Source: Candidatus Bathyarchaeota archaeon (lineage in GTDB: Archaea; Thermoproteota; Bathyarchaeia; Bathyarchaeales; Bathycorpusculaceae). From it: a DNA stretch of 64,000 nt. The DNA lies in assembly GCA_963775925.1 (NCBI GenBank), contig CAVZKK010000012.1, positions 36,390-100,389 on the forward strand. Direction: 5' to 3'. Made by a program: the position numbers and the translations under genes. The notes below the pieces were generated by a model. It did no database searches. It was given only the letters and a program-made list of their open reading frames with translations, and was not told the DNA's origin. Positions 26,146 through 62,300 of this stretch are shown one piece after another; positions within the stretch are counted from its first letter, which is position 1; each line of letters starts with the position of its first letter.

Positions 26146-26152
26146 CAATACT

Positions 26153-29139: not shown

Positions 29140-29153
29140 CGTTTCTTTCCCCT

Positions 29154-30023
29154 TTATTTTTTGTGCAAGTTTTGGGCTGCAATAGACGTTAAGCCTCTTT
29201 CGGTTAGGGCTTTTGCTGTTCTATTTACAGCATCATGTTTGTCCAAGTAATTGTTCAGGAGTTTTGGCATCAGTCCTTTCTCTATTATTTCTTTTTTAGG
29301 CATGAAATAGTCTAAGATGTCAGAAGGGTGTTCTCGTTTTCTGTCAACTTCTGGGATTCCGCCTTCATGTTTGGCGCTTATATTTTTGACATGATCTGCT
29401 ATTTCTAGGAGTTCGTTAAGGCGGTCATAGGGTTGCCTCACAATACTTTTTTGTGTTTCCACAATGTGGTGTTCGATGCGGACTATATCCTCAAAGTTGA
29501 AGGCCTTCCTAATGTAGGCCGACAGCTCAATTGTTTGATTGTCGACAGAGTTTGAAAGGTTAAACCCGATAAGCGGAGTTGTGCCATCCTCTCGGCTGAA
29601 GAGTTTCGCCGTCATCAAAGTCCAAAATATTGAATATGGATTATCGGTACCCAAAAACACTGAAATCTTGAACTCTATGTCAATTCCAAGTTTGTGCAGT
29701 AAATATCCTAGCAAGACGGTTCCCGAGTTTGTGTTTAAAACTTGCGGAAGACCATATTCAGTATAATAGTGCAGAAACTCGTCAACCCATTTCAAAGCGT
29801 ATTCATTTGGCACTCCTACGCCTCCAAAATAGCCCGTTATGGTTTCGGGTCCTCCCAAATGAACGTTGATGGGTTTGCCGTCCGGTCCCGACATTGTTCC
29901 TTTAGTGTCTAATGTTTCCACATAAGAAGCGCCTATGATCTGCATTGCGGCTGCAAATGCTAGAATGTCATCATCCTCAACCTGTTCTTCCATGCTGCGG
30001 ACGCGTATGTAGCGGGCTGGCAT
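29154..30023 (-). CDS. Conserved hypothetical protein, family unassigned (paralog of 52461-53378)
   Basis: 289 aa, about 75% identical to the 52461 ORF. Shared blocks include HLGGPETITGYFGGVGVPNEY and HEGGIP. I can see only a weak, unverifiable resemblance to the TIM-barrel subunit of B12-dependent aminomutases. Confidence 0.5.
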   Translation of the reverse strand: MPARYIRVRSMEEQVEDDDILAFAAAMQIIGASYVETLDTKGTMSGPDGKPINVHLGGPETITGYFGGVGVPNEYALKWVDEFLHYYTEYGLPQVLNTNSGTVLLGYLLHKLGIDIEFKISVFLGTDNPYSIFWTLMTAKLFSREDGTTPLIGFNLSNSVDNQTIELSAYIRKAFNFEDIVRIEHHIVETQKSIVRQPYDRLNELLEIADHVKNISAKHEGGIPEVDRKREHPSDILDYFMPKKEIIEKGLMPKLLNNYLDKHDAVNRTAKALTERGLTSIAAQNLHKK

Positions 30024-30224
30024 TAGGTCTTGTTGGGCAATTGCTCTTTTTGCCTCTTCTATGAGCCATGGGAAAAAGTTAAAGGCGCTAATTTCAAGCG
30101 TTACTGAAAAGGATTCGATTAAATTTCATGGAATCAGCTTTTTTTCCTAAAATTTTCCTTCGATAGTCTGGTATGCTGATGAAGGCTTCCTTGTCGCGTT
30201 GTTTAATGAGCCACTCAAGGTCTT

Positions 30225-30443
30225 TCACGAAAGGTGATTTCTTTTTCTAAGGCGTTTCATCAAGTTTTCAAGTTTATGGTTTTCCCTAGCCTTGCGATTG
30301 ATCTCTTCAACACTGCCATATTTCTCAACAATTCTGAGCAAGCCATTTATGAGGGAATTATCCTTTTTCAACAGGAAATCATTAATCTTTTTCAAATTGT
30401 CTTCGCTAATCTTCAATTTTTCTTTGATATCCTTCATGAACAA
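30225..30443 (-). CDS. Small helical protein (intact copy; the disrupted paralog lies at 53560-53760)
   Basis: 72 aa, K/E-rich. Upstream partner of the 29154 gene. The homologous DNA next to the second paralog carries frame disruptions. Confidence 0.4.
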   Translation of the reverse strand: MFMKDIKEKLKISEDNLKKINDFLLKKDNSLINGLLRIVEKYGSVEEINRKARENHKLENLMKRLRKRNHLS

Positions 30444-37938: not shown

Positions 37939-39950
37939 ATGTTGAAAGAGACAATGACAAGCTTTGACATTGCAGCTGTATTTCGAGAAATAACTCCGAT
38001 AATCAAAGACACATTTATCGACAATATCTACCAAATCAACGCTGTTACATTGGTGTTTAATCTGCGCAAACCAAGCCAGACACCCATCAACCTGCTCATC
38101 GAGGCAGGAAGAAGATTCCACTTAACATCTTACATTGTCAGTAAACCATCAAAGCCTCCCGCTTTCTGCATGGCTATAAGAAAATACCTCAGAAACGGCA
38201 AAATTATTGAAGTTAGACAACATGAATTTGAGCGCATCATAATATTAGAAGTAAAGACAAGAGAAGGCAATTTCCAGCTAATATGTGAACTCTTCGGCGA
38301 AGGAAACATTATCCTAGTAAATCAGCAAAACCAAATCTTACACGCCTTAACTTATAAGAGAATGCGTGACCGAAACATTCTTCGAAACGAAATTTTTCAG
38401 CATCCTCCACCAAGTGGCAGAAATCCCCTCAAACTAAGTCTCGAAGAGTTTGATAAAGTCAGAACTATCGGAAAATTAGAAATCGTTAAGGGGCTTACAC
38501 AGTTTTTAGGTATTGGAGGACTTTACGCTGAAGAAATTCTTCTCAGAGCTGGCATTGACAAGAACACTCTATGCCAGTCGTTGACTACTCGGCAAGTGGA
38601 CGAAATTTTTAATCAACTAAATAACATTCTGTCTCTTACTACAACTGGAAAAACTGAACATTGCATCACAGTTGATGAAAAAGGCGAATTAGTCGATGTG
38701 ACTCCAATTCAACTAAGGAAATATGAGGGCTACAAGCAAAAGAAATTTGAGATTTCAGCGAAGCCTTAGACGAATATTATGCGGAAGCGGCTTTGAAGGA
38801 AAAAGAAGTTAGCGGTTCCAAGTCATTCGAGAAGGAACTGGCAAAACTTGAAAGAGTTCTTCAGAATCAACAGGGAACCATAGAGGATTTGAAGAAAAAG
38901 ATTGAATTAAACAAGAAGATTGGAGACCTAATTTACTCACACTTTGGAGAATTGCATGTTCTTCTTCAAGGAATTGTCGATGCGAAGAAAAGTGGGAAAT
39001 CGTGGGAACAAATAGTGTCTGATGTCGAAATCGGCAAGCAGTCTGGGCGCTCTCCTGCAACATTTTTCCATTCTCTGCAGCAAAAAGGTCTAATCCTAAA
39101 CGTTTCACTAGATGACCAAATACCTGCTTTAAACCTTCGACGTTCAATACAGGACAATGCAGCAAATTATTATGCAGAGGCTAAGAAGGCTGAAAAGAAA
39201 CTAGAAGGCGCTAACAAAGCCTTGCAGGAAACCCAAAACAAAGTTGAGGAATTGAAGCAGCATTGGGCAATCCAGATGAAGGAAACTCAGAAGCCTTTAC
39301 TTCGTAAAGCAAGAGAAAAGGCATGGTACGAAAAATTCCGCTGGTTTAACTCCTCAGAAGGTTTTCTCGTAATCGGCGGAAGAGACGCAGTAACAAACGA
39401 AATTCTTGTCAAAAAATACATGGAGCCTCACGATATTATTTTCCACGCTGGCATTGTAGGTGCGCCCTTCGTCCTAATTAAGACTGAAGGAAAAATTCCC
39501 ACCGAACAGACTTTGATGGAGTCAGCTCAGTTTGCTGCTTCCTATTCGCGAGCTTGGAAAGAAGTATCAGTGACAGTTGATGTTTATTGGGTCAAGCCAG
39601 AACAAGTAAGCAAAAGTCCGCCTTCTGGGCAATACGTTCAGAAAGGAGCATTTACAATCAAAGGAACCAAAAACTACTTTCGGAATATTCCTTTGCAAAT
39701 CGCGATAGGAATCAAAACTGAAGAAGAATACTTAAAAATTATCGGAGGCTCAGTTGAAGCAGTCGTAAAGCAAGCGAATGCTTATGTTAAGGTAGTTCCG
39801 GGTAAGTTGACCAGTAGCAAACTTGCGAAGCAGATAAGATTTTTGTTGGCTAAGAAGGCTCCTGAATCCTTGCGAAAAGGGATTTTAGAGATTCCTCTTG
39901 AAGAAATACAGAAGTTTATTCCACTTGGTGAGGGAGAAACTAAGGCATAG
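37939..39950 (+). CDS. NFACT-family protein (Rqc2/NEMF/FbpA homolog, ribosome-quality-control factor), frameshifted near 38755
   Basis: The NFACT-N domain start (SFDIAAVFREI...FHLTSY...PPAFCMAIRKYL) is collinear with the NFACT-R/C region in the second ORF. Combined length is about 660 aa. Confidence 0.65.
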
Positions 39951-41056: not shown

Positions 41057-42197
41057 CTATTTTGTTATTTCTCTGCCTATTATAACTCTCATTATTTCGT
41101 TTGTTCCCCCAGCAGAAATTGTTTCAAGAGCATCTCTAAGAAAACGCATTATATGAAATTCTGGCAACGTCCCATATGCCCCATGAATCTGGATAGCCTT
41201 CAAGGCAGTTCTTCTGGCAACCTCACTTGAATACGCCTTCGCCATCGCGATTTCTTTCTGAATCTCCTTACCACTCTTTCCATTGTCAAGCAGCCAAGCG
41301 GTGTGGTAGGCTAACCATTTTGCAGCCTCAATCTCCATTGTCATATCTGCCAACATGAACTGCACTGCCTGAAGCTGAGTAATAGGTTTTCCATATAACG
41401 TTCTTTCTTTGGCAAACTTTAACGCTACCTCATAAGCCGCCTCTGCAACACCTAACGCAACGCCTGTACATCCAGTTCTGCCAATTTCCGAAATTGTCGC
41501 TAATGAAGCCTTAAGCCCATCTCCCTCTCTACCAACCAAGTTTGCTTTAGGTATTCTACAATTGTGGAATATGAGTTCTGACACTTCCATGGCTCGTAGT
41601 CCAGCATGTTTTTCTCTCATCCACTTCAAAGCCTTCCGTGCCCTTCTCTACAATAAATGTGCTTAATCCGTTTGGTCCTTCACCTGTTCTCGCAATAAAC
41701 ACGCAAATATCTGCTACGCTGCTGTTTGTGATGAAGCATTTGCTTCCATTAATGATGTATTCATCGCCTTTCGCTTTAGCCTTAGTCATAATCGAAAGTG
41801 GGTCAGAGCCGCCTGAAGCCTCTGTAACTGCCATGCACATTATTTTCTCTCCTCGCACAATAGGCGGAATATACTTCTTCTTCTGTTCTTCTGTTCCAAA
41901 ATTGAGTATCGCCCACAAGCCCAAAGGCGTGGCTTGAAGAAAAAGCCCAAAAGAAGCGCATGCGCGGGAGATTTCTTCTATGCTTATCATTCTTGCTAAA
42001 TGGCCCATCGGGGAACCGCCATATTCGGTGGGTATGACAATTCCTATGAGGCCTAAATCAGCAATCTTCTTTGCAATTTCTCGTGGAAATTCGGCTTTTT
42101 CATCTAGTTCCAGTGCCTTTGGCAGCAGTTCTTTTTCTGCAAACGTTCGCAATGTATTTTTTAATAGTTCTTGTTCTGGCGTGAGGCTGAAATCCAT
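41057..42197 (-). CDS. Acyl-CoA dehydrogenase, frameshifted near 41556-41629
   Basis: N-terminal alpha domain (MDFSLTPEQELLKNTLRTFAEKEL), middle beta domain, and C-terminal domain with the catalytic-region signature in the 41057-41629 ORF (QIHGAYGTLPEFHIMRFLRDA). Confidence 0.7.
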
Positions 42198-48734: not shown

Positions 48735-50252
48735 CTAAGGTTCGTATCTGAATGGGTGTCTTGCTGAAGCTTTGCGTTCCAATATCTCTTCCTGTGAGGG
48801 CCTTGCTTCCATTGCTCTTCTTATGGCGAATCTCATAGCCTTGTAATTGTTTATGTTTACTCGTTTCGGGTTTGACGCTGTCGGATGCACAAAAACGTTT
48901 GCTATCATCACTAGTTCATCCAAAGCGTCTTTGGGCAGTAAGCCATCATTTATGCTATCAACCACCGCCTTGCCAACTCCACTCATCGCATACACATAAA
49001 CAAGTTCAGCCTGCTGCTCACTCCTAACCGTAACAGTGGGCGTAAGCAATGTCTTAGGCTTAACCTCCTTGCCCTCAAACTTGACTAAAACTGGCTCATG
49101 ACCAGCCCTCGGACTAGCTAAGGTGTCTTCTATAACTTTGCCAACTGGTCCATCATTTAACCCTAATAGAAGGTCAATGTGGGCTACGTCTGCTGTTCCA
49201 GGCGAGGCAAAGGCTTCACCGACCTTCAATGAAAAATCACTTATTCTGCTTGGCGTTTGAGGGATAGCGCCAGAAAACTCGCTTTTGACAACAACTTTCG
49301 GTTTGAACTCCATTTGCAGAGGCTTTTTCTTCAGTTTCCCTAACATTTCCAAATGTAAGCGCATCAGGTCTTCATCTTCATAGCGGAAGACGCCACCAGT
49401 TATAAGTGGTCTTCTCGTTGTTCCCATTTCCAAGCCCATCATATTAAGCCCAGCTTTGACCGCTAATCCACCACCTTGCCTTGTAACGATTCTTACCAGT
49501 GTCTGGATTTTTCTCTGCAGGTCCTGTGCTTCTTCGAAATTGCCTTTCTTGACAAGGTTGTAGATTTGTAGCCAAATGTCTGGTATCAGATTTGCAGATG
49601 CCAAAATCAGTCCATCTGCACCTGCAGCAAGTGCAGCCATAGCGATTTCGTCGTGACCGCAAATGATTGAAATTTTGCCGTAAACTTTTTCGAATAGGGC
49701 CATCATGTAGGGCATGTTGCCGCTGCTGTCCTTTATCCCGACTACATTGTCAATTTCTGCTAGGGCTTCTACAACCCACCATGGAACTTCAAGGCTAGTT
49801 ACCTGAGGAATATTATACAGAATAATTGGCAAGTCAACAGCCTCAGCAACTTTCATGTAATGTTCAAAAATCTCCTTGTCCGTGGGTTTGAGATAGAAGG
49901 GCGAAACAACAAGGGCAGCGTCTGCGCCAACATCGTTTGCATGCTTAGTGAATTCTATAGCGGTTTTAGTTCCAGCGTCGCCAGTTCCAGCAATTACAGG
50001 CACTTTACCATTAACTTGGTCTACAGTGATTTCTACAATTCTTTTTCTTTCTTCCATTGTCATACTGCTGAATTCGCCTGTAGTGCCACACGGGACAACA
50101 CCTGTCACATGATTTTCAACCACAAAATCGATTAGACGCCTCAAAGCTTTTTCGTCTATTTCATATTTCTTCGTAAATGGCGTCACAAGCGCTGGTATGA
50201 CTCCTCTTGGCCAAAATTTCTTTTTCTCTTTCATGCTTCTTTTTTCCTCCAT
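48735..50252 (-). CDS. Fusion protein: DapA-like class-I aldolase (dihydrodipicolinate synthase/NAL family) N-terminal domain plus a C-terminal formaldehyde-activating enzyme (Fae) domain
   Basis: DapA-family blocks (ALVTPF, VPCGTTGEF, VIAGTG) and the Schiff-base lysine region. The C-terminal 170 aa match Fae (VAHIDLLLG, ...RKASARHPF). Confidence 0.65.
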   Translation of the reverse strand: MEEKRSMKEKKKFWPRGVIPALVTPFTKKYEIDEKALRRLIDFVVENHVTGVVPCGTTGEFSSMTMEERKRIVEITVDQVNGKVPVIAGTGDAGTKTAIEFTKHANDVGADAALVVSPFYLKPTDKEIFEHYMKVAEAVDLPIILYNIPQVTSLEVPWWVVEALAEIDNVVGIKDSSGNMPYMMALFEKVYGKISIICGHDEIAMAALAAGADGLILASANLIPDIWLQIYNLVKKGNFEEAQDLQRKIQTLVRIVTRQGGGLAVKAGLNMMGLEMGTTRRPLITGGVFRYEDEDLMRLHLEMLGKLKKKPLQMEFKPKVVVKSEFSGAIPQTPSRISDFSLKVGEAFASPGTADVAHIDLLLGLNDGPVGKVIEDTLASPRAGHEPVLVKFEGKEVKPKTLLTPTVTVRSEQQAELVYVYAMSGVGKAVVDSINDGLLPKDALDELVMIANVFVHPTASNPKRVNINNYKAMRFAIRRAMEARPSQEEILERKASARHPFRYEP

Positions 50253-51696
50253 AGTCCAAATGCTTTCAAAAGAGCCAACTTGATTCCATCATAAGAATTC
50301 ATGTATAATAGGCGTCTATTGACAACCGCTGAATGAACAAAAACTTTGACAATGACCGCGGATGTTTCTACGGATTCTTCGGGAATTATTTCTTCTTCCA
50401 CAGCGTCTGCTATGGCTTTTCCAACAGCAGACTGCACCGGTCCATAAATGATGCTTGCTTGCCTCATACTCTCAATTTTCGCATATGGCACAATAAGCGT
50501 GATAGGTTTGACAGCAAGGTTTGGCTCAACGATTGCGGTTAAAGCCTCGTATCCAGGTTCAGGATTTGCTACAGCCTTTGCCCAACCATAGCCTACTGGA
50601 CTACTCTTTAGACCGCTTAACAAGGATATGTGAACTTTTTCTACTCCTTCACCCGTTGACGCTTCTGTAGTTGCCAACTTGAAGTGCTTTATGTCTTGAG
50701 AGGTGATGCCTAAATCTTTGAACCTTTCTTCTAAGGCTTCTGAGGGTTCAAAGACCGCTTTGGCTTTCATGGGTTCTATTTTTCCTAGTTTTTCAAGTTC
50801 CATTCGCATTTCTTCTTTGACCTCCATGGTTAAGATGCCGCCGCTTACTAGTGGTCTCCGAGTCTTGCCCATGTCTAATCCCATCATCTTTAATGCAGCC
50901 TTAACTGGCACTGCACCACCATGCCTAACAAAAATTCTTGCCAGCTTCTGTGCGTTCATTTGTAGTTCTTTGGCTGTTTGCAGGTCGCCTTTTTTTACTG
51001 CTTCATAGAGTTTTATCCAAATGCCTGGAATAACGTTTGCAGAGGCTAATATTGCCCCTTTGGCTCCAGCTGCTAACGCTGGCAAGACAACTTCATCATG
51101 GCCGCAGACAATGTTAATCTTGTCGCCAACTGTTTGCAAGAGTTCAAGCATGTAGGGGAGATGCCCACTGCTGTCCTTTAAGCCGACAACATTGCCTATT
51201 TGAGCCAAATCTTCCACTACTTCTCTGCTTAGAAAACTTCCAGTACACTGTGGAATATTATATAAGACAATGGGAATTGTTGTGGCTTGCGAAAGTTCGT
51301 AAAAATGTTGAAAGTCGCCTTTATCTGCGGGACGCAAATAATATGGCGATACAACTAAGAGCTGCGTCTGCGCCTGCTTTCTCTGCATGTTTCGTCAATT
51401 CTATTGCTTCAAGAGTGAGAGCTTGCGCCTGTTCCAGCAATAACTGGAACTCTCCCCTTGACCTCATCAATGACTGTTTCAACAGTTTTCTTGCGCTCTT
51501 CTTTTGACATGTAAACAAATTCGCCTGTCGTTCCACAGGGCACAACTCCAGTAACACCTTCGCCTATGACAAAATTCACTAATCGCCTTAACGCTTTCTC
51601 ATCAATGTCCGCGTCATTCTTAAATGGCGTGACTAACGCTGGATAAATTCCTTCTAAATTGAACTTCTTCATCATTGACACCATCCATGTGGGCAA
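50231..51696 (-). CDS. Second DapA-like aldolase / Fae-like fusion protein (tandem paralog), split over three frames
   Basis: N-terminus in 51409-51696 (YPALVTPF...VPCGTTGEF...VIAGTG), a middle piece in 51321-51557 (AIELTKHAEKAGADAAL), and the rest in 50231-51388, ending with a diverged Fae-like domain (VHISLLSG...). Confidence 0.5.
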
Positions 51697-51863
51697 GAAT
51701 CGATTCTAAACCATCTAGTGGCTAATATGCTTTGCACGAAAGCAATAAAAGAGATTAATTGATGCTCGTGAGGGGATATTGGTGCACATGTATCCTAGTG
51801 GCAACGTTTCCCGCAACCCTCTTTTTTCATTCATGGTGAAATGGGACAGAAGTGGTTCCTCGA

Positions 51864-52340
51864 TTATCGGGGAAACAAAGAACGAGGATTTGTCGTCAAC
51901 CTCTCATTCAATTCCCACAGTACTATTTTGTTTCCCTCATATTTCATCAAACTGAGAGCCTCTTCACATTCAAGCCATCTGTATTCAGTATGCTCAGACG
52001 AAAGTATAATTTGTCTATCGTCCGCAAGAACGCCAAAGCAATACTGAGGTATAACACAAGTGCTCTCGCCCCAAAGACAACTGTTCCTGAACTCTGCAAC
52101 AGGTATAGGTAACACTGTTATCAACTGAACAAACAGTGAATCCTCTGGCAAACCAATTTCTTCGCGAGTCTCCCTCTTGGCTGCTTCAAGAGGTGTCTCA
52201 TCATTCTCCCCACCACCCGCTACACCTTGCCAGTATCCAGCATCAGATCTCTTCAGAAGCATATATTCATATTTGCCAACGCCAATCTTGCGATAAGGAT
52301 ACACGAGCACTTGGAAAGATGCTCTTGCCATTCCGATCAT
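51864..52340 (-). CDS. NUDIX hydrolase
   Basis: Nudix box GGGENDETPLEAAKRETREEIGL. Confidence 0.75.
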   Translation of the reverse strand: MIGMARASFQVLVYPYRKIGVGKYEYMLLKRSDAGYWQGVAGGGENDETPLEAAKRETREEIGLPEDSLFVQLITVLPIPVAEFRNSCLWGESTCVIPQYCFGVLADDRQIILSSEHTEYRWLECEEALSLMKYEGNKIVLWELNERLTTNPRSLFPR

Positions 52341-52460
52341 TCCTCACTACGACTATTGCATGCATATATGGGGAAGTCGGGCTTTTCAAGTTTATTTCGA
52401 CTTGCGTCCTCGATTATGTTGCTGGTGCGGAGGTGGGGTTGCATTCCAATACTGGTTTAG

Positions 52461-53378
52461 TTATTTTTTGTGCAGGTTCCATGCGGCGATGAATGTTAAG
52501 CCTCGTTCTGTGAGGGCTTTGGCTGTTCTGTTCACTGCATCGTGTTTGTCCAGATAATTTGTTAGAAGGTCTGGCATGAGTCCTTTTTCAACTATTTCTT
52601 TCTTTGGAATAAAATAGTCTAGAATGGCTGATGGATGTTTTCGCTTTTCTTCAACTTTTGGGATTCCGCCTTCATGTTTGGCACTGATGTTTTTGACGTG
52701 GCATGCGATTTCTAAGAGTTCATCTAGGCGATCATAGGGCTGTCTGACAATGCTTTTGTAGGTTTCTGTAATGTGATGTTCAATGCGGACAATGTCTTCA
52801 AAGCCAAAATTCTTCCTTACATAGGTTGCGAGTTCGATTGTTTTGTTGTTTGTGGAGTTTGATAGGTTAAAGCCGATTAGCGGTGTGGTTCCATCGTCTC
52901 GACTGAAGAGTTTAGCGGTCATAAGAGTCCATAGACATGAGTAGGGATTATCATTGCCCAAGAAAACTGAGATTTTGAATTCTATGTCGATTCCTAGTTT
53001 GTATAGCCAGTATCCAAGCATAACCGTGCCAGTGTTAATATTCAATACTTGTTGAACGCCATATTCAGTGTAGTAGTGAAGATATTCGTCAACCCATTTC
53101 AAAGTGTACTCGTTTGGTACTCCTACGCCCCCAAAATAGCCTGTGATTGTTTCGGGGCCTCCTAAATGAACGTTGATTGGCTGACCATCTGGCCCTGGCA
53201 TTGTTCCTTTTGTGTCTAATGTCTGCACGAAAGAAGCGCCGATAATTTGCATTGCTGCCACAGATGCGAGAAGGTCGTCGTCTTGAACTTGTTCCTTCAT
53301 AGAGCGGACACGAATGTAGCGACCGGGCATAAGGTCCTTGCTCTCCAATAGATTTTCTTTGCTTCTTCTATAAGCCAT
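52461..53378 (-). CDS. Conserved hypothetical protein, family unassigned (paralog of 29154-30023)
   Basis: 305 aa, about 75% identical to the 29154 ORF. A possible N-terminal extension in another frame lies upstream (53380-53540). Confidence 0.5.
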   Translation of the reverse strand: MAYRRSKENLLESKDLMPGRYIRVRSMKEQVQDDDLLASVAAMQIIGASFVQTLDTKGTMPGPDGQPINVHLGGPETITGYFGGVGVPNEYTLKWVDEYLHYYTEYGVQQVLNINTGTVMLGYWLYKLGIDIEFKISVFLGNDNPYSCLWTLMTAKLFSRDDGTTPLIGFNLSNSTNNKTIELATYVRKNFGFEDIVRIEHHITETYKSIVRQPYDRLDELLEIACHVKNISAKHEGGIPKVEEKRKHPSAILDYFIPKKEIVEKGLMPDLLTNYLDKHDAVNRTAKALTERGLTFIAAWNLHKK

Positions 53379-53559
53379 GGGAAAAAGTTAAACGCACTTA
53401 TTTCAAGCGTCACCGCAAAAGAGTCGTCAAATTTCATGGAGTCACTTTTTTTACCTAAAATTTTTCTGCGATACTCTGGGATGCTAATGAATGCGCCTTT
53501 ATCTCGCTGTTTAGTCAGCCATTCAAGTCCTTTATGTAAGGAGATTTTTGTCGTTCAAG

Positions 53560-53760
53560 TCTAGTCATGATATTTCCGAGATTGCGGGCTTCCTTAGCCT
53601 TGCGATTAATCTCGTCAACGCCACCGTGTTTTTCAACGATTTTTAATAGCCATTTACAAGAGGGTTATCTTCGTTTAGAATAAGATCGTTTATTTCTTTC
53701 AGATTTTTCTCTCTGATTTTTAATCTTTCTCTTAGATCGGTCAAGGGTACCCCTCCAGAA
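53560..53760 (-). pseudogene. Disrupted copy of the small helical protein gene (paralog of 30225-30443)
   Basis: DNA homologous to the 30225 gene. Hand translation gives LTDLRERLKIREKNLKEINDLILNEDNPLVNGY, then a stop, then the rest in another frame. Confidence 0.3.
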
Positions 53761-53818
53761 ATTTGTTATGGAGCTTAAATGTATCGGCATTTAAGCATTT
53801 TCGCACGAAGCAATGTGG

Positions 53819-55550
53819 TTATTTTGTTTTTCCTGTTTTCTTGCAGAGGTTAGAGATAGCGAAGATTATGTGGGGCTGGGTGAAGATGCTGAAAACTTTT
53901 GTGTATTTTGGTGACCCAGCGTTCTTTATGTTTTCTTTTTTTCCTCCGGTTTCTAGGTATCCTTCAATAAACTCTTTAGCGACGCGCTCTAGAGCGTTTG
54001 CTGTAGAAAGCGGAGGAACATAATGCCCCGAATAATAGAGGAATTCGGCTATGTCCCAGTTTTGGTCACCGTCTCTGGTTGCCTGCTCCAAATCTACAAA
54101 GCATAGTTTTCCATTTGTTGTTACTATGACGTTTTCGGGCTTGCAGTCTCCTAAAAGAGACGCCTAATTTATGAATTTCAGCGATTTTCCCACCAACCTC
54201 CCGTATCAAACCTACTCTTGCTAATGTTTCCCTCTTGCCAGAAAGCATTTCCTTGACAATTTCGCCAAAGTTTTCTCCTTCAATAAACTCTTTGAAAATT
54301 AGCCGTTCTTGAGGGCTGACATACAACGTTTTTGGAACACAAATTCCCTTACTATGTAAAAACTGGTTAATTGCATATTCTCTTTCCAGTCTTGTTCTTC
54401 CAAGAACTGCGAAGGATTTAGTTCCCAGCGACCACAAGGTTAGAGGGAACCATTTGATGCTTGCCCAATCCCTGAACCTTTTAACTACAATCTTTTGTGC
54501 CTCATGACTTCTTTCAAGTGTGAGAAGGTATACGTCGTTTAAGACGCCTCCAATCGGTTTCAATTCCATATTAAGAATTTCTCCGCTGGGAACAGTTTTT
54601 CTTACAAAGTCTTCGATGGTAGTCTTATCTGAGAACGAAACTGGTCCAAGCGGTGTCGGCACAAAAACATGTTTTCTAGGGTCTTCAAGTTGAGAAACTA
54701 AATTCTCAACGTCTGCATCCTTGTGGGTCTGTAGCAAGATTTCTTGGTCATTCATGTAGGGTCTCATCATTTTCGGCAGAACACTCAAAATATTTAGCAA
54801 AGCTGCCCTTTGAACGGCTTTAATGAAAGTTGGAATTCGGATTCTTCGTTTTCTAACGGTGTCTATGAAGTTCCGTGTAATTTTCACATAACCGTTAGAT
54901 GAAGATTATTTTGTTTTCTTCTGCCAATTCGGTAAGTGCCGCTTGATATCCTTTCATCATGCAATCGACATTTTTCTTTTCACGTCCTCTCTCATCATGT
55001 TTAGATACGTGTAGGCTACTGGCGGAAACAGTCGAGCTCTTTGCATCATAGCCTCATACATGAAGTATTCTTTTTCGATGAGTAGTTCTTGAGAGAGTTC
55101 TGGAAACGTAAAGACAATATTTTCTAAAAGTTCCCAAATTATTCTTTTTTTCGCCTCCACTTCTTTCTTCTGCCAGTAACTTTCATTTAGCAGAGGCTGG
55201 TATGGGATGATGAGTTTATTTACGACAAATTCTCCAAGCCACCCTTGCCTAACATCTCTTTCAAACGAACCTTTATCAACCGCTAAAATGAATGCTCTAA
55301 CTTCGTTTAGAGACTTCAAATAACCCTTCAATATAGAACGATAATTATCAATCACCAATAGGACGTTTACATCGGTTTTCTCGTCAGCGTATCCACATAC
55401 ATGCGGACCATAGAAGCATGCAGCTACTATTTCGCGGGAGCCAGCAATACGCTTACAGACGCTTAATATGTTCTCGTTTAGATTTTCATTCTTAAACTGC
55501 ATTTTCATAGTATTTTCCATATTCTTAGCCGCATGGAATTTCTGTGACAA
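53819..55550 (-). CDS. Nucleotidyltransferase / atypical-kinase fusion protein (module copy 2), split over three frames
   Basis: Intact nucleotidyltransferase motif GS...GYADEKTDVNVLLVID. Kinase-like blocks VVKRF and, by hand translation across the frameshift, LGDCKPENVIV...DLEQA. C-terminal 90 aa in 53819-54091. Confidence 0.5.
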
Positions 55551-55779
55551 CTATTTCCTTTTTCTTTTCTTCTCTTTTAGGTTTAATGCGTCTAACGATT
55601 TTTTCCGTTTTTCCCTCCTCTCCGGGACAGTTGTGTTCTTCTGGAAGACAATGGTCTTGGCAATACCATTCTTCACATCTGGTGCATTGATAGGGCAGTG
55701 GAGTTGGTTGTAGACAGTAATTGCAGTGAGATGAAGCATAGCCTACGGTTGCTACATCCAATCTTAGATGTTGGAGCAA
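55525..55779 (-). CDS. AN1-type zinc-finger protein
   Basis: CNYC-x9-C-x2-C-x4-C-x2-H-x5-H-x-C fits the AN1 zinc-finger spacing exactly, followed by a Lys/Glu-rich tail. Confidence 0.5.
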   Translation of the reverse strand: MLQHLRLDVATVGYASSHCNYCLQPTPLPYQCTRCEEWYCQDHCLPEEHNCPGEEGKTEKIVRRIKPKREEKKKEIVVTEIPCG

Positions 55780-56000
55780 TATTTGACAAGATTTTCTTCA
55801 CTATTTCATGGCATTTTTCTCGAGGCATATAATCTGGCAGAACTATTGAGATTTCATTTCCTCGCTGAACTACCGTAAATCGTTGTCCACCAATTTTTCC
55901 ATCTCCAATTCCTTTGGTTCGTTCACGTAACCCCAATAGACGAATAATTTCTCCCCAAGCAATTTGAGAAAGCACTGTTCTAAAAATTAAGTTAGACATT

Positions 56001-57352
56001 TTATCTGTCACATCTAGCCATCTTATAGTATGCTCGCAACGCCTTTAACGCCTTTGCTGCCTTGTCAGGCAAATTATAGACAGGTATCTCAGTGTCCTGC
56101 AAAACCTTATAGACCATATTGAAGTCTTCTCCTCCAGCTGGAACATCAACCACAGGCTTGCCCAAACTCTTTTTTGCGGTTTCAGCAATCGCTTTAGCAT
56201 CTTCTGGTTCAAAGAAGCATGATTTCAGCATGTTTATGACCATAACTCCGTCCACGTTTGGGTCTGCTAAGACTAAGGCTAAAACGGTTGAGTATCTTTC
56301 ACTTCTTGCGTCTGCAATCAAGTCTATAGGGTTGATAACTTCTACTCCAGGATAATGCCTTTCAACTTCTTTTCTTGTTTTTTCTGAAAGCGTTGCTAAT
56401 TTTAAGCCGTTTCTTGCAATTGCGTCTGCAGCGAGGATGGCTGGTCCACCTACATTGCTTACAATCGCTATGTTGTCTCCACGCAGGGGCGGCTGTTTCA
56501 CTAGGGCAATGGCGGAGTTGAGCAGTTCTTCGGCATCTTCAACTCTGATGATTCCAGCTTTTTTCAGTGCTGCGTCAAACACGATGTCTGAGCCTGCTAT
56601 TGATGCCGTATGCGATAAGTGCTCTTCTGAGCCGCTTCCTTGGTTACTCCGCCTTTCAATGCCAGAATTGGTTTTTTCTTAACAACTTCTTGGGCTGTTT
56701 CTATGAATTCTCGTCCTCTTTCGATTCCTTCCATGTAGAGGCATATTGCTTTTGTTTCTGGGTCTTCGTTAAAGTATTGTAGTAAGTCTACGTCGTCGAT
56801 GTCGATTTTGTCTCCCATAAAAACGAATTTGCTTACGCCTATGCTGTAGCAATATGCCCAGTCTAGTAGGCATGCGCCGACTCCTCCGCTTTGAGAGATA
56901 ACTGAAATGTTACCTTTCGTGGGCATTAGGTCTTTTTCGAAGGTTGTGTTTAACCCGTTGGATGTGTTTATGACTCCCATGATCGTGTTTGGTCCAAGTA
57001 TGCGTATGCCATACTCTTTCCTAATGCTCGCTAGTTGTTGTCTTTGCTCATTCTTGAATCCGCCAGTTACCATGACTAATGCTTTGACTCCGATTTTAGC
57101 GCATTTTTCTGCCTCTTGCACTGCCAATTTTGGTGGAAGCATGATTACGCCTAAATCTGGCACTTTCAACAAAGTCTTGCGTTCTTCTTTTTCAATGTCG
57201 ATAAGGATAGTTTGTCCCTGAAAGAATTTCTTCATGTTGTAAACAACGTTTTCAAAAAGTTCAGGAGATGTCATTCCGACTTTTTCTCGAATTTTGCCAG
57301 ACCCAATAAGTAAGACGATTTTTGGTTCGAAGAGTGAATTCACTTCATTCAT
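56001..57352 (-). CDS. Acyl-CoA synthetase (ADP-forming) alpha-subunit-like protein (module copy 2), frameshifted near 56590
   Basis: Collinear paralog of 21672-23045, split into two ORFs (56597-57352 and 56001-56582). The phosphohistidine-loop region is conserved. Confidence 0.55.
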
Positions 57353-57683
57353 GACTTTGCCTCTTTCCTAGAAATCCTAGTTTGAAAGTGAGGGTTCAAA
57401 TATTCTCTTGAATAGGCTTAAACATTTCCTTTTTTTGTTTGCATGTTTGAGATATCGCGCGCAACTTTTGCCCTTCTCTCTTCTGATGAAAACTGGAAAA
57501 ATTTTTTGTTTTTTCATCAATTGCTGAGGGAATCTTTTGTTTTCTGATTTTGAAATAGGCGTTGGTTTGGGTTCTGTTGGGTTTGATAACTATGATAGGA
57601 GTTGATAAATGTTTTCAAGCATTTTGCCCTTTTCAAAAAAGGGTTAAGCTTAATATTTTCTGCTAGCTTCTCTTCTCAGCGTA

Positions 57684-58472
57684 GTGGTTGCTATGGGCTC
57701 AAGTTCTGGGTCTGCGGTAAAATTGAGTAATGTCGTCAAACGTTATAGCGACATTACTGCACTAGATAATGTTAATTTGGATGTAAGATATGGCGAAATT
57801 TTTGGGCTTCTCGGACCAAATGGCTCAGGCAAGTCAACTACGTTGAAGATTATTTTAGGTTTGGTTAAGGCTGATTCTGGCTTTACCAACGTTTTAGGCA
57901 TAGATGCAGAAGAGAATCCTGTGGCTGTGAAGCAGCAGGTAGGGTATGTTCCAGAGTCGCCACATCTTTATGAGTTTTTGACAGGAATTGAGTATCTTGA
58001 CTTTATCGGCGACATCTATGGAATGCAACCAACAGAAAAGAAGGAACGAATAGCCGAATACTTGCAGGCGCTTGATTTGGAAGGAAGAGAAGGCGACATG
58101 ATAGCTGGCTATTCCGCTGGAATGAAACAGAAAATAGCCATAATATCTGCTCTTATACATAAGCCGAAACTGCTACTTCTAGACGAGCCGTTGACTGGTT
58201 TGGACCCGAGGTCAGCCAGAATCATAAAAGACCTACTTCATGAATTAGCCTCAAAAGGGGTAACAGTCATTATGTCGACTCATATCTTAGAAATTGCTCA
58301 AGCCATGTGTCACCGCATAGCCATTATGCTCAATGGGAGAATCCTTGCATTAGGCAACATGGAAGAGCTGAGGCAAAAAGCAAAACTGCCCGGCTCAGAT
58401 TTGGAAGACATCTTCCTAAAACTTACAGGAACAGAAGACATTAAAGATGTAGTTGAGGCACTCCTCAAATGA
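57684..58472 (+). CDS. ABC transporter ATP-binding protein
   Basis: Walker A GPNGSGKST, signature YSAGMKQKIAIISAL, Walker B LLLDEPLTGLD. Confidence 0.85.
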   Translation: MVAMGSSSGSAVKLSNVVKRYSDITALDNVNLDVRYGEIFGLLGPNGSGKSTTLKIILGLVKADSGFTNVLGIDAEENPVAVKQQVGYVPESPHLYEFLTGIEYLDFIGDIYGMQPTEKKERIAEYLQALDLEGREGDMIAGYSAGMKQKIAIISALIHKPKLLLLDEPLTGLDPRSARIIKDLLHELASKGVTVIMSTHILEIAQAMCHRIAIMLNGRILALGNMEELRQKAKLPGSDLEDIFLKLTGTEDIKDVVEALLK

Positions 58473-60146
58473 AGTGGAAAAATGTTGCTAGGCTCATAAG
58501 CGTTGACATCAAGTCAGGAAGACTGATGAGGAGTAGAGAGTTTAGAAAATATCGGGAAAACAAGTTTCTTACATATCTGCTTTATATTGGGGCCGTTTTA
58601 GTAGGAATTGCAGTTGCAGTAATTGTTTTGAGCGTATATGCGGCTATAGCAGATGCGTCGATGAGACAAGTAATTCATGATGGAATCATGGCACTGTTCC
58701 TTTCTTTTCCGTCTTTGATTTTCATTTACAGCCTTGTTTTAACTTTGATGGGGCAACTTCAACGAATGGGGATAAAAGTCTCTATTCAACCGCCTTATTG
58801 GTTGCCTATTACGTGGAGTGAGCATACTCTTGCATCGATTATCGCTATCCTTCTCGGCATTCCGCTTGCTTCAATACTTTTAATTGGTTCAATAGTTGCG
58901 GTGCTTTCCATCTTTCTGGGGCAAGTGCAGTTGGCGATTTTCACTATCTTAGCGTCTTTTGCTAGTGCGTTTATGGCTAGCACTACTACAGAGATTTTCA
59001 GAGTTTTGCAACTCAGACTAGTTGGAGCAGTGTACAAATCCTCTGGCAAAGTCTGCAGTCTGGGTTAGATTCATAGGGTCAATGCTTTTCATCGTAATTT
59101 TCTATTTAATCTGGTTTTCAATTGCTTCTGGAATGAATTCAATTGCCTTCATAGGGGCAATTAGCAGTTGGCAAAGGCTGGTTTGGTTTATTCCCTATGT
59201 TTGGCTAGGGATGGCTTTATACTCCCTCTCTTATGGATTACTTTTTGATACACTCATTTTCTCAATCGCATCTATATTCTTCATTCTACTCCTATTTTAC
59301 ATAGCGGTTAAACTGAACACAAGATATGGGCTATATGAGCCTCCTGCAATTACTATCTCTCGAGGAGTTTATTCACCAAAAACTGGCTTCTTAGCAAAGT
59401 TGGGTTTCTCTTCCCTAGAAGCAGCAATCATCAGGAAAGATTTCAAGGCTTTCACGAGACGCAAAGAATTAATGTATATTTTCATAATGCCCATTGTATT
59501 AGTAATTGTGCCGTTAATGCAGTCTTTCAATGCAGCGACAACTCCTTCTTCAGCGTTTTCTCAACTGTTCCTTTCTGCATGGGTCCTCTTGATTCCTGGT
59601 CCCGCTATGGCTGCGATCATGGGAGATATGATTCTTGGCGAAGAAGGTGGAGCAGTGTGGCATTTCTTTTCATCGCCACTCTCTGCGGGTAATCTTCTCA
59701 AATGCAAGTATGCGGTTGTGGCGTCATTCTCATTCCTAGTAGCAGCTATTTGTAGCGTGATTGGCATAGTGATATTTCAGCCATCAGTGAAAGTCATCGC
59801 GGTTTCCCTAATCGAGTCCATCTTCTTGATTATTGCCTTAGCTATGATTTCTATCGAATCTGGAATAAGAGGAGCAGACTTCGTTGAGATTCCAAGACCG
59901 AGAATGATAAAAACTTGGACAGCAATTACCAGTTTCATTTTATGCTCAATAGTTGGTTTAGTGATACTGGCACCTCTCTTGCCACATGTTGCTACAAAAA
60001 TTGGTTTGCCCATATCTTTAGTGCCCCCTTTTGACCTCTACATTTCGCTTATAGCAAGCGGGCTCATAGCCTCTGTAATAACCTACATATTTTATAGGTT
60101 AGCATTGAAAAGAGCAAAGGATTTTCTAACCAACACTGAAACCTAA
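58469..60146 (+). CDS. Polytopic membrane protein(s), the putative permease for the preceding ATPase; possibly one gene split by a frameshift near 59030
   Basis: Two overlapping ORFs (58469-59068 and 59022-60146), both strongly hydrophobic. Start overlaps the ATPase stop. Confidence 0.45.
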
Positions 60147-60308
60147 AGCGGTTAGAACGAAGAATATTGAACCATTGGTTAAAGCAGGTTGATCTGTACC
60201 AAAAAACATGAATAGTGTTCTCACAAGAATGGCCAATCTTTCAAAATATATTGGAAACCTATATTATGATTACCTTCAAAGGCATGGGTAATAAAGAAAA
60301 AAGGAGAA

Positions 60309-60653
60309 TTATGGGGGTGGAGGCGGTGGTGGGGGTGTCGCCCCACTGGGTTTCCATCTGAGAGCCAAAATACCTCCGATGAGAGTAATGATATTCAGTC
60401 CGGCAATTATTGACAATACCACAATAATGATGCCCCAAGTGTGTGCAGAAGATGGCTTATTGTACATCATGACTGCTCCAAGTATCATTATTAATCCGAG
60501 TATTATGAAGTAAGCGCCAATCATTACATTCGTGTTAGGATCCATGCCAGAGATTAGCACCGCCAGTCTTGCAGCAAGTGCAACGCCAAGAAGAATCTCA
60601 AGGATTCCTCCGATCAAGGTTACAATGAATGCAGTGGTAGGTTTTTCTGCCAA
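60309..60653 (-). CDS. Small membrane protein with a C-terminal polyproline tail
   Basis: 114 aa, three transmembrane helices, ends ...GATPPPPPPPP (poly-G run in the DNA on the plus strand). Confidence 0.4.
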   Translation of the reverse strand: MAEKPTTAFIVTLIGGILEILLGVALAARLAVLISGMDPNTNVMIGAYFIILGLIMILGAVMMYNKPSSAHTWGIIIVVLSIIAGLNIITLIGGILALRWKPSGATPPPPPPPP

Positions 60654-60718
60654 TCAATTCACCTTGAGCTGTTTGTTACTTCTTTCAGTTTATAAGTTTT
60701 TTTTGGATAAGTCGCAGT

Positions 60719-61501
60719 CTAGTGCCTTTGTAGAATCTTCATGTATGCAAAGATCGCGAGAGATGCAAACATTGCAGAGAAGATGGCTACGTTCAATAGC
60801 ATAAGTGGCGAAAAGACATAGCCATCGGATGCGGGAAGTAAAAAGGAACGAATCATGTCGGAACCGTTAGTTAATGGGTTAACTTCCGCAAAAATGACTA
60901 AGAACCCAAGTCCTTTTGTTTCGAGTATTTGAATGACCGATATCGGGTAGAATACCGTGCTACAGAAGAACAACATGTAATACACAACGCTCCTAGCAGT
61001 TACAAACTTCTCAAAACTCGTGGTTGATACCGCAATTGAAATGCTGATTCCAGAAATCCCAATGGCTAACAATAATAGCGTCAACAATATAAGCAAAAGT
61101 TCAGGCAGAGTTGGAAAATGAAGCACGATGAAGTTAGTTATCAATAATGGTGTCATGTAAAGCATCCCTCTCAATCCGCCTGCAAGCACTCGTCCAATAG
61201 CCAACTCAGCCCGAGTCATAGGCAAACTAAGTAGATAATGATGAATCTCTCGGCGAACTTCCATGTTGATTTCTCTACCAATCATGAACGCCGAAGCAAA
61301 AAGCCCAACGACAGCGAGACCTGGAGCGAAGAACTGAAAATAGTCAAAACCAGGGATATTTTTCGTCATCTGAGTAAAAACGATGGCACTAATGAATAAG
61401 TCAGCCAAATTCATGGCAAGAAGCCCAATAATGAACCATCTGTAACGGAAGAAATTCTTGAAATCGTACTCGATGACATGCAAAATGGCTTTCACTTTCA
61501 C
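60719..61501 (-). CDS. ABC-2 family permease (module copy 2, paralog of 20797-21579)
   Basis: Six transmembrane helices, collinear with its paralog (shared HDFRNFFRYKWWL/HVIEYDFKNFFRYRWFI, GREINME). Confidence 0.7.
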   Translation of the reverse strand: MKVKAILHVIEYDFKNFFRYRWFIIGLLAMNLADLFISAIVFTQMTKNIPGFDYFQFFAPGLAVVGLFASAFMIGREINMEVRREIHHYLLSLPMTRAELAIGRVLAGGLRGMLYMTPLLITNFIVLHFPTLPELLLILLTLLLLAIGISGISISIAVSTTSFEKFVTARSVVYYMLFFCSTVFYPISVIQILETKGLGFLVIFAEVNPLTNGSDMIRSFLLPASDGYVFSPLMLLNVAIFSAMFASLAIFAYMKILQRH

Positions 61502-62286: not shown

Positions 62287-62300
62287 GGCAATAGCCTCAT

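Follow-up and report, generated by a model that had tools for sequence, protein, structure and literature searches.

An aldolase-Fae fusion gene pair of Candidatus Bathyarchaeota archaeon, widespread in anaerobic archaea and bacteria and annotated as DapA

Introduction

The locus described here raises the question of what is made by two adjacent genes, each of which joins an aldolase of the dihydrodipicolinate synthase/N-acetylneuraminate lyase (DHDPS/NAL) family to a formaldehyde-activating enzyme (Fae) domain. The genes, designated A and B, lie in a stretch of 64,000 nucleotides (the window) of Candidatus Bathyarchaeota archaeon (GCA_963775925.1, contig CAVZKK010000012.1, positions 36,390 to 100,389). 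Canonical Fae is a homopentamer which converts formaldehyde and tetrahydromethanopterin (H4MPT) to methylene-H4MPT.

Genes of this architecture are annotated as DapA in the databases, and a search of the literature on Fae in combination with DapA or DHDPS, with fusions, or with Asgard archaea or Bathyarchaeia turned up no paper on it. The annotation is of consequence: Bathyarchaeia, Asgard archaea and Anaerolineae rank with the most abundant microbes of sediments, and their C1 metabolism has been reconstructed mainly by annotation. The fusion is a widespread enzyme pair of anaerobic archaea and bacteria, mislabelled as the DapA of the lysine pathway; the computed parts of this statement (the fusion, the A/B pair and the distinction from DapA) are jointly held with high confidence. 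The 'DapA' genes in these groups are this fusion, as are, probably, many of the 'fae' matches. In that case, metabolic reconstructions have to be corrected where they call the lysine pathway or formaldehyde detoxification.

Gene organization

The features of the locus are listed in Table 1. Homologous loci in other genomes are designated by L numbers.

Table 1. Coordinates of the fusion genes, their domains and neighboring genes in the window
Feature	Position	Strand	Basis or remark
Gene A, DHDPS-like aldolase and full-length Fae fusion	48735..50252	minus	intact ORF, 505 aa
Gene A aldolase domain, residues 16-284	49401..50207	minus	alignment to solved DapA structures, residue tables
Gene A Fae domain, residues 344-501	48750..49223	minus	Fae 1y5y match, conservation tables
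Gene B, paralogous aldolase with degenerate, C-terminally short Fae	50231..51675	minus	two 1-nt insertions interrupt the gene
Gene B Fae-like domain	50258..50665	minus	Pfam Fae profile 3-138 of 159, residue tables
Two single-C insertions, at about 51417 and 51359	51359..51417	minus	DNA alignment with L083 and L081
NUDIX hydrolase gene, between c1 and gene B	51864..52340	minus	Pfam NUDIX, 3e-13
c1, conserved protein of about 427 aa	52464..53745	minus	upstream of B; TIM-barrel model, 6 single-base indels here
Second, paralogous c1 copy	29154..30437	minus	away from any fusion gene; compensated frameshift pair

In gene A, Pfam assigned the DHDPS domain with an E-value of 8e-82 and the Fae domain with 1e-41 (142.9 bits, profile positions 1-158 of 159; the PF08714 cutoff is 27 bits). 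The NCBIfam fae model TIGR03126 scored 155.1 bits, above its cutoff of 118.05, and the Fae domain matched Methylobacterium extorquens Fae (1y5y) over its full length (E 3e-23). The domain carries the motifs GE, AHIDL, FVHP, NN.KA and RHPF; the segments VAHIDLLLG and RKASARHPF, which the preliminary description of this DNA had called near-canonical, are both present. A missed stop codon as the source of the fusion is ruled out: the gene A ORF is continuous, and the same two-domain architecture is found in more than 120 database proteins 485-515 aa long. The AF2 model of gene A (pLDDT 91.8, pTM 0.90) has a beta hairpin as linker, and on the strength of that linker and the pTM the aldolase and Fae domains are predicted to be rigidly fused.

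The last 22 nt of gene B overlap the start of gene A. That both genes encode the fusion was confirmed with the Pfam DHDPS and Fae profiles, but two frameshifts keep gene B from being a single ORF in the window. It is read as a 95-aa piece (51409-51696; DHDPS profile 2-81) and a 385-aa piece (50231-51388; DHDPS profile 100-273 and Fae profile), with about 20 codons between them in the third frame. The DHDPS E-values for the two pieces are 1.8e-43 and 4.7e-26, and the Fae match scores 130.7 bits over profile positions 3-138 only. Translation likely starts at the ATG at 51675 rather than at the TTG at 51696. After repair, gene B is 48% identical to gene A over 472 residues.

Both interruptions are extra C bases relative to L083, which is 96% identical, and to L081. 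It is improbable that gene B is a real pseudogene which leaves gene A alone functional: the two frameshifts are truly in the given sequence and neither falls in a homopolymer run, but gene B is otherwise free of stop codons, is about 98% identical to L083 in amino-acid sequence across the 265 residues that were compared, and sits among genes with the same defect. Fourteen single-base indels relative to L083 occur within 6.7 kb in five of six genes (B 2, c1 6, the Kdo/kinase-domain gene 3, a Succ_CoA_lig-like gene 2, a zf-AN1 gene 1), all intact in that relative, and further split genes are found elsewhere in the window. Because the relatives carry intact gene B orthologs (L081/L082, 483 aa, and L083) and the neighboring genes show indels of the same kind, the two frameshifts most likely represent assembly or sequence errors. 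Programmed frameshifting is ruled out, since both extra bases are absent from near-identical relatives.

Aldolase domain

The catalytic residues of gene A are GTTGEF, T58, Y120, Y146 and the Schiff-base lysine K174. GTTGEF, T58, Y146 and K174 are kept in the A, B and single-gene forms, as is Y120 except for an F in many of the bacterial B types; the GxTGE motif of PF00701 and the strand-6 lysine, here GTTGEF and K174, occur in every fused sequence tabulated. Both aldolase sites of the locus look intact, with the Schiff-base lysine conserved in each.

The identity of the aldolase turns on the position of DapA Arg138, the arginine which in the E. coli enzyme binds the carboxylate of aspartate semialdehyde. 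In the alignment to solved DapA structures gene A has V151 at this position (YNIPQVT against YNVPSRT) and gene B has C. None of 46 fused domains has R (C in 29, V in 14, T in 2, M in 1), whereas R is present in 48 of the 54 stand-alone DHDPS homologs among the matches listed. The control set came from the ordinary DapA loci which the contig scan of GTDB representatives (see below) also returned in number.

It is highly improbable that the protein is a genuine DapA of lysine biosynthesis incidentally fused to Fae, as annotated. Gene A does score 244.8 bits with the NCBIfam dapA equivalog model (TIGR00674), above the cutoff of 206.15, as does a B-type protein from L011 with 228.6 bits; the closest solved structures to its aldolase are all DapA (e.g., M. 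jannaschii 2yxg, 2.5e-59), and the catalytic lysine, tyrosine and threonine residues are present. Against this, no DapB domain was found in the Pfam-annotated loci L081-L084 and L086-L088, and two DapA subunits plus a Fae domain would have no rationale. Since none of the 46 fused domains has the aspartate semialdehyde-binding arginine, the residue data argue that the fused aldolase is not DapA.

Fae domains

The Fae domain of gene B is more diverged than that of gene A, as the preliminary description held. It reads VHISL for AHIDL, keeps the GP.Q motif and lacks the last approximately 20 residues with the RHPF segment, a truncation common to all B-type genes elsewhere. Of the 33 columns that are conserved among 40 canonical Fae proteins, the single-gene form retains a fraction of 0.88, paired A one of 0.62 and B one of 0.54. 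Paired A keeps E346, A357, H358, N469 and P485 and loses PN393-394, G420, Q423 and A427; the pattern in B is the reverse, and the single-gene form keeps both residue sets. In the FGPAQ motif, for instance, paired A has lost the G and Q, which B and the single-gene form retain.

H358 and D360 of the AH(I/V)DL motif, equivalent to the catalytic His22 and Asp24 of M. extorquens Fae, are invariant in A-type and single-gene proteins, in which nearly all canonical residues are kept under strong purifying selection. In B-type proteins this site is degenerate (H replaced by Q or S, or D by S). The canonical lysine of the FNKVT motif (36 of 40 canonical proteins) is Thr in every fused protein, and the reaction of the fused Fae domain may for this reason not be exactly the canonical one.

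Because complementary residue sets are lost in A and B and both are kept in the single-gene form, we infer that the two proteins assemble into a heteromer whose functional Fae sites would be built across A/B interfaces. Going by the Fae crystal structure, the complementary residues may fall on either side of a subunit interface. The A/B pair is a clear example of duplicates that have degenerated in complementary ways.

Distribution

The architecture had been thought unusual, which it is not: the more than 120 fused homologs come from Bathyarchaeia, Baldrarchaeia, Promethearchaeota, Thermoplasmata/Methanomassiliicoccales and Chloroflexota, and the contig scan found at least 27 fused loci among GTDB species representatives. 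B lies upstream and A downstream in at least 12 of the scan loci (Chloroflexota/Anaerolineae, Spirochaetota, Sandaracinaceae, Thorarchaeota) and also in L081/L082, L084, L086, L087 and L088. The pair in this order is kept in Bathyarchaeia, Thorarchaeota, Methanomassiliicoccales, Baldrarchaeia, Chloroflexota, Spirochaetota and Sandaracinaceae. A single fused gene occurs in other Bathyarchaeia and in Promethearchaeota. In most loci the two genes overlap or are at most 13 nt apart, with exceptions such as L088 and L011.

A neighbor-joining tree separates the B, paired-A and single-gene proteins into three clades, and the topologies of A and B mirror each other. B-then-A is an old, co-inherited and translationally coupled pair. 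The tandem that had been described is paralogous but does not stem from a recent duplication.

Neighboring genes

Among the matches listed, c1 adjoins the fusion in 12 of 27 loci from three phyla, and it does so also in L081-L084; at other loci c6 takes its place. The bacterial and archaeal c1 proteins are about 60% identical and thousands of copies are present in public data. The model for c1/c6 is a generic TIM barrel only, and the match between c1 and c6 is weak (hhalign E 6e-4, probability 28%). Being without family assignment, c1 is an obvious target for functional discovery. In Bathyarchaeia, c1 and the fusion have TrmI and the Kdo/kinase-domain gene as housekeeping neighbors.

The NUDIX gene was considered as a conserved partner and dropped. 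Homologs of the window protein were detected among the other fusion loci only in L083, the NUDIX genes downstream of gene A in L084 and in L012 are unrelated to it, and most fusion loci have no NUDIX gene. Beyond c1 and c6, no pathway is shared by the fusion neighborhoods, which contain lineage-specific genes only: GlcD-like oxidase (following gene A in L008), OYE, GNAT, flavin reductase, TIM, tRNA deacylase and M28 peptidase.

Proposed function

The most economical reading of the domain combination is an aldol cleavage or condensation coupled to formaldehyde/H4MPT chemistry, as had been suggested earlier, and the loss of the DapA-specific arginine fits it. B and A would together make one enzyme. 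Each of its two subunits would be a pyruvate-type aldolase of class I (Schiff-base lysine) from the DHDPS/NAL family, joined rigidly to a Fae-fold domain. Formaldehyde would be the aldehyde partner of the aldolase, the simplest reaction being 4-hydroxy-2-oxobutanoate ⇌ pyruvate + formaldehyde, and the Fae domain would trap or supply formaldehyde as methylene-tetrahydromethanopterin, or on folate in lineages without H4MPT. The neighboring c1 or c6 protein may act upstream or downstream in the same pathway. We put the probability of this explanation as a whole (a two-subunit non-DapA aldolase-Fae enzyme with heteromeric Fae sites, a formaldehyde/pyruvate reaction and c1/c6 in the pathway) at roughly 0.4. 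Its narrowest form, a dedicated formaldehyde/pyruvate aldolase on a pterin C1 carrier, working as an obligate A/B heteromer with Fae half-sites and together with the c1/c6 TIM-barrel family, is possible but doubtful.

The pointers to formaldehyde as a substrate are only two, the domain combination and the missing arginine. Coupling to H4MPT is weakened because several of the host lineages (Anaerolineae, Spirochaetota, Sandaracinaceae, Methanomassiliicoccales) are, to our knowledge, not known to use H4MPT, and the proposed pathway because the neighborhoods show none that is consistent besides c1/c6. Bathyarchaeia possess the Wood-Ljungdahl pathway in its H4MPT form, with 'fae' widespread among them (PMC10321748). 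The reaction itself is made less secure by the fact that 4-hydroxy-2-oxobutanoate is a non-native metabolite in E. coli for which only promiscuous aldolases are known (PMC8879981). If the narrowest form of the explanation is true, Bathyarchaeia, Asgard archaea, Thermoplasmata and Chloroflexota would have an unrecognized route linking C1 units with C3/C4 metabolism.

The same chemistry could run in the opposite physiological direction, possibly with another donor. In such a biosynthetic hydroxymethyl transfer, C1 from methylene-H4MPT would be placed, by reverse Fae or by direct iminium attack, onto a 2-oxo acid, for example pyruvate to give 4-hydroxy-2-oxobutanoate (homoserine), or 2-oxoisovalerate to give ketopantoate as a PanB analogue. 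The strong conservation of c1 and the fusion, very common in Bathyarchaeia amid TrmI and Kdo/kinase-domain genes, together with this housekeeping context, resembles core biosynthesis more than accessory catabolism, and a small hydrophobic residue at the Arg138 position would suit a bulkier donor. However, no pantothenate, threonine or methionine genes were linked in any locus examined, the pyruvate-binding residues are unchanged, and no characterized enzyme of the DHDPS family is known to use a donor other than pyruvate. We regard such a transfer as unlikely.

A role in pterin metabolism, in which the Fae fold is a pterin-binding module and c1, NUDIX, B and A make or salvage a pterin-type cofactor, is quite improbable. 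It would accommodate the replaced Fae lysine and the NUDIX genes that accompany the cluster, one in the window and in L083 and unrelated ones in L084 and L012, the best NCBIfam match of the window protein being dihydroneopterin triphosphate diphosphatase. That NudB-like score is 57.5 bits, far under the cutoff of 103, however; MutT1 is the top-scoring model for the Chloroflexota NUDIX proteins, most loci lack the gene, and the aldolase retains a complete pyruvate Schiff-base site, which no known step of pterin synthesis requires. No more probable is a sugar-acid (2-keto-3-deoxy acid) aldolase with glycolaldehyde or glyceraldehyde, and not formaldehyde, as its aldehyde product, and with Fae as a structural or regulatory addition. 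The DHDPS-family KDG aldolase and YagE/YjhH have this chemistry, some Chloroflexota loci contain FGGY kinase, class II aldolase, 2-hydroxyacid dehydrogenase, aldehyde:ferredoxin oxidoreductase and transaldolase/FSA genes, and the oxidase of L008 lies downstream of gene A; but the sugar-gene context is confined to a few related genomes, and the selection on the near-canonical A-type and single-gene Fae domains is hard to square with a purely structural domain.

Comparison with known systems

Fae-Hps, a bifunctional enzyme found in methanogens (NF009833; M. barkeri, M. hungatei Mhun1628), is thought to capture by its Fae part the formaldehyde released by Hps (PMC5241800). By analogy, the enzyme proposed here would also join Fae to a carbon-carbon lyase which releases or consumes formaldehyde, and would allow its immediate capture as methylene-H4MPT. 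The partner is an N-terminal class-I DHDPS-type aldolase and not hexulose-6-phosphate synthase: NF009833 matches gene A in the Fae part only (profile 2-161 of 392, 116.9 bits against a cutoff of 274), and Pfam found no Hps (OMP-decarboxylase fold) domain in genes A and B. The A/B paralog pair, the complementary Fae decay and the Thr for lysine replacement are further differences from Fae-Hps.

With DapA (TIGR00674; 2yxg, 1dhp) the fusion shares the fold, the closest sequence relatives, a score above the HMM cutoff and the equivalents of E. coli K161, Tyr133, Thr44 and Tyr107; it differs in lacking the Arg138 equivalent and dapB linkage and in having a C-terminal Fae domain. N-acetylneuraminate lyase, archaeal KDG aldolase and YagE/YjhH are likewise pyruvate Schiff-base aldolases of the DHDPS/NAL family, have a residue other than arginine at the Arg138 position and cleave 2-keto-3-deoxy acids to pyruvate and an aldehyde. 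Their NCBIfam models give weaker, sub-threshold matches to the fusion, none of them is fused to Fae, and the aldehyde proposed here would be the one-carbon member. PanB, the ketopantoate hydroxymethyltransferase, connects a methylene-pterin and a 2-oxo acid by hydroxymethyl transfer, which is the overall stoichiometry proposed for the fusion, but is a single-domain, metal-dependent TIM barrel unrelated in sequence to either domain.

The proposed reaction, pyruvate + formaldehyde ⇌ 4-hydroxy-2-oxobutanoate, is that of the promiscuous E. coli RhmA, used as 4-hydroxy-2-oxobutanoate aldolase in a synthetic homoserine cycle; no natural dedicated enzyme for it is described in the same paper (PMC8879981). 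RhmA is, unlike the fusion, a class II metal aldolase with no link to a pterin carrier. Should the reaction proposed for the fusion be right, this would be the first dedicated enzyme in nature for pyruvate-formaldehyde aldol chemistry, and would have formaldehyde channelling built in; synthetic methylotrophy now borrows the reaction from promiscuous enzymes.

Domain architecture

By Pfam, gene A comprises a DHDPS domain (residues 16-284, E 8e-82) and a Fae domain (residues 344-501, E 1e-41, whole profile covered). It scores 244.8 bits against the NCBIfam model dapA TIGR00674 (cutoff 206.15) and 155.1 bits against fae TIGR03126 (cutoff 118.05), and because both cutoffs are exceeded, public records name such fusions '4-hydroxy-tetrahydrodipicolinate synthase' or 'formaldehyde-activating enzyme'. 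The nearest solved structures for the N-terminal domain are DapA (M. jannaschii 2yxg, 2.5e-59), and the C-terminal domain matches M. extorquens Fae over its full length (1y5y, 3.4e-23). All three kinds of match bear out the aldolase-Fae fusion of the preliminary description. A second PDB match of the Fae domain, 8ub7 chain B ('Avd'), is accounted for by the M. extorquens Fae sequence that forms the C-terminal half of this apparently engineered fusion, and has no bearing on function. The AlphaFold2 model of gene A is confident overall (pLDDT 91.8, pTM 0.90). Its linker forms a beta hairpin between the domains, so a compact two-domain protein, a rigid aldolase-Fae fusion, is predicted rather than two loosely tethered genes.

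Coordinates of the fusion gene, its neighbors and the indel-affected regions
Feature	Source	Coordinates	Strand	Remark
Gene A	window	48735-50252	minus	single 505-aa ORF
NUDIX hydrolase gene	window	51864-52340		inside cluster; also in L083
c1	window	52464-53745	as fusion genes	six indels
Second c1	window	29154-30437		split gene, adjacent ORFs
c1 loci	L001-L005, L012, L014, L015, L017, L024, L027, L081-L085
c6	L007	6916-7866
c6	L011	6997-7947
c6	L016	5635-6582
c6	L026	9029-9976
c6	L086	4588-5529
c6	L087	4628-5566
c6	L088	3888-4838
Indel region versus L083	window	50878-57615		single-base indels, often in nearby pairs
Split gene (example)	window	15796-16849		adjacent ORFs
Split gene (example)	window	24810-26145		adjacent ORFs
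Split gene (example)	window	37939-39950		adjacent ORFs
Split gene (example)	window	41057-42197		adjacent ORFs

Gene B and assembly quality

Gene B lies directly upstream of gene A and overlaps its start by 22 nt. The tandem pair of fusion genes described earlier is real; what had been missed is that gene B is not one ORF in the window. Three frames are traversed within about 75 nt (...VIAGTGAS / LTLEAIELTKHAEKAGADAA / LVVSPYYLRP...), and alignment with two relatives places two extra C at about 51417 and 51359. Gene B is intact in the close relatives L081 and L082 (483 aa); in L083, whose contig ends within the gene, the N-terminal 265 aa read through without a break. The window and L083 align over 6.7 kb at 96% nucleotide identity, and relative to L083 the window has 14 single-base indels inside five of six genes, including c1 (the ~427-aa neighbor protein), the Kdo/kinase-domain gene and the Succ_CoA_lig-like gene. 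Since the relatives carry an intact gene B and similar indels split other genes of the window, the breaks are very probably (about 0.85) assembly errors rather than the result of pseudogenisation or recoding. Gene calls from the window need care because of these many indels. Repaired gene B is 48% identical to gene A over 472 residues.

Aldolase and Fae residues

As anticipated for a Schiff-base aldolase, lysine K174 is conserved in both aldolase domains, together with the catalytic-triad tyrosines and threonine and the GTTGEF motif, and the pyruvate Schiff-base sites of the pair appear intact from the alignment. The catalytic tyrosine is followed by YNIPQ[VC]T in the fused proteins versus YN[VI]P[SG]RT in DapA. 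In DapA, the carboxylate of aspartate semialdehyde is bound by Arg138 (E. coli numbering), a residue needed for normal catalysis; the other DHDPS-family members, whose substrates are 2-keto-3-deoxy acids that they cleave, carry a non-basic residue instead. The position holds C, V, T or M in 46/46 fused domains (all loci fetched); the arginine is kept in 48/54 stand-alone DHDPS homologs among the matches listed in the same scan. No dapB was found in any Pfam-annotated fusion locus. Judged by these residues, the fused aldolases are most probably not DapA.

A-type Fae domains, and those of lineages with one fused gene, keep GE, AH(I/V)DL, PTV, FVHP, NN.KA and the C-terminal RHPF.Y. The Fae active-site residues of the pair are only partly conserved: AH(I/V)DL stands in A, and in B-type proteins its histidine is replaced by Q or S, or, in the window and L081, its aspartate by S. 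B-type proteins also lack the last ~20 residues of the domain, in agreement with the earlier remark that the second Fae domain is more diverged. Compared with 40 canonical Fae and Fae-Hps sequences at the 33 columns conserved at >= 75%, single-gene Fae retains 0.88 of the residues, paired A 0.62 and B 0.54. Residues E346, A357, H358, N469 and P485 persist in paired A and are lost from B; the reverse holds for the PN in the PNL..KP loop and for G420, Q423 and A427 in the FGPAQ region. In the Fae pentamer H4MPT is bound between adjacent subunits, near Phe84 and Phe119. At the level of aligned residues the losses of A and B are complementary and describe putative half-sites, the pattern expected if a homo-oligomer with interface sites becomes a hetero-oligomer. 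The lysine of FNKVT, present in 36/40 canonical Fae sequences, is instead threonine in all fused types.

Distribution and ancestry

Both domains are present in 119 of the 120 best database matches to gene A, the exception, an entry of 341 aa, having just the aldolase domain; the architecture regarded earlier as unusual is already in databases and is mislabelled there. These matches come from Bathyarchaeia, Baldrarchaeia, Promethearchaeota, Thermoplasmata/Methanomassiliicoccales and Chloroflexota. Searching 1.84 billion representatives with the Fae half gave only 543 clusters (50% identity) at E ≤ 0.001; 14 clusters reach 1e-30, those of 467-500 aa being of the fused type. A literature search found no paper on an aldolase-Fae fusion.

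At least 27 fused loci were found among GTDB species representatives. A B-type gene (short Fae domain) followed by an A-type gene, as in the window, occurs in Chloroflexota/Anaerolineae, Spirochaetota, Sandaracinaceae and Thorarchaeota, in L081/L082, the Methanomassiliicoccales genome CP070739.1, Baldrarchaeia and further Chloroflexota loci, the two genes usually overlapping or separated by a few bases. A single fused gene is present in the other Bathyarchaeia and in most Promethearchaeota. B, paired A and single-gene sequences form three clades in a neighbor-joining tree. The lineage order inside the B clade is that inside the paired-A clade, which points to a single ancient duplication, after which the two genes were inherited together and also transferred together between archaea and bacteria.

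Proposed reaction

The aldolase would use formaldehyde as aldehyde partner. Its simplest reaction would be 4-hydroxy-2-oxobutanoate ⇌ pyruvate + formaldehyde, the case with a one-carbon aldehyde in the 2-keto-3-deoxy-acid series cleaved by the DHDPS-type family. The Fae site would turn formaldehyde into methylene-H4MPT or supply formaldehyde from it. Coupling of an aldol reaction to formaldehyde/H4MPT chemistry is plausible, as is a place for aldolase-Fae with known fusions of Fae to a formaldehyde-handling lyase. Fae-Hps, for which a comparable formaldehyde-capture logic has been proposed (PMC5241800), shares the coupling of Fae to such a lyase. The Wood-Ljungdahl pathway of Bathyarchaeia uses H4MPT, and 'fae' is reported to be widespread in the group (PMC10321748); the reported matches may include the aldolase-Fae fusion. 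So far, 4-hydroxy-2-oxobutanoate aldolase is known only as a side activity of promiscuous enzymes, of which a synthetic pathway makes use (PMC8879981).

Gene neighborhood

The sole recurrent neighbor of the fusion genes is c1. In Bathyarchaeia with a single fused gene, c1 is oriented divergently from it; in Promethearchaeota, the Anaerolineae loci L012 and L084, L081-L083 and the window, c1 lies upstream in the same orientation. It has no match in Pfam, NCBIfam or PDB sequences; an archaeal or bacterial query alike gives at least 8000 database matches, all named hypothetical. About 60% identical among Chloroflexota, Asgard and Bathyarchaeia, c1 is predicted to have a helical N-domain and a TIM-like barrel, with invariant residues including H193 (NVHLGG), K179 (DTKGT), K257 (FKISV), an EHH motif and AKHEG. 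In other lineages (Methanomassiliicoccales, Baldrarchaeia, Anaerolineae, Sandaracinaceae and one Promethearchaeota genome) c6, a protein of ~315 aa with no Pfam match, replaces c1 upstream of B-A or single-type fusion genes, mostly immediately upstream. Fusion genes thus show linkage to c1 or c6 in these lineages. Copies of c6 are 66-94% identical among Anaerolineae, Baldrarchaeia, Promethearchaeota and Methanomassiliicoccales and about 49% identical to the Sandaracinaceae copy. By hhalign, c6 is weakly similar to the c1 barrel (E 6e-4), to which it may be distantly related.

The Chloroflexota contig JBMOMT010000059.1 (L085) carries c1 without a fusion gene nearby, beside a glycerate-kinase-like MOFRL protein, a sugar-binding protein, a large GlcD/CCG-type oxidase and regulators, surroundings that hint at hydroxy-acid metabolism.

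The best NCBIfam match of the window NUDIX protein is dihydroneopterin triphosphate diphosphatase (NudB-like; 57.5 bits, below the cutoff of 103); NUDIX genes following gene A in the Chloroflexota loci L084 and L012 are unrelated to it. The window holds two paralogous gene blocks, 18987-30470 and 52464-63254, each with an ABC transporter ATPase, two permeases, a Succ_CoA_lig-like protein, a Kdo/kinase-domain protein and c1. One is laid out as in the Bathyarchaeia loci L004 and L027, the other as in L081-L083, and fusion genes follow the block at 52464-63254 only.
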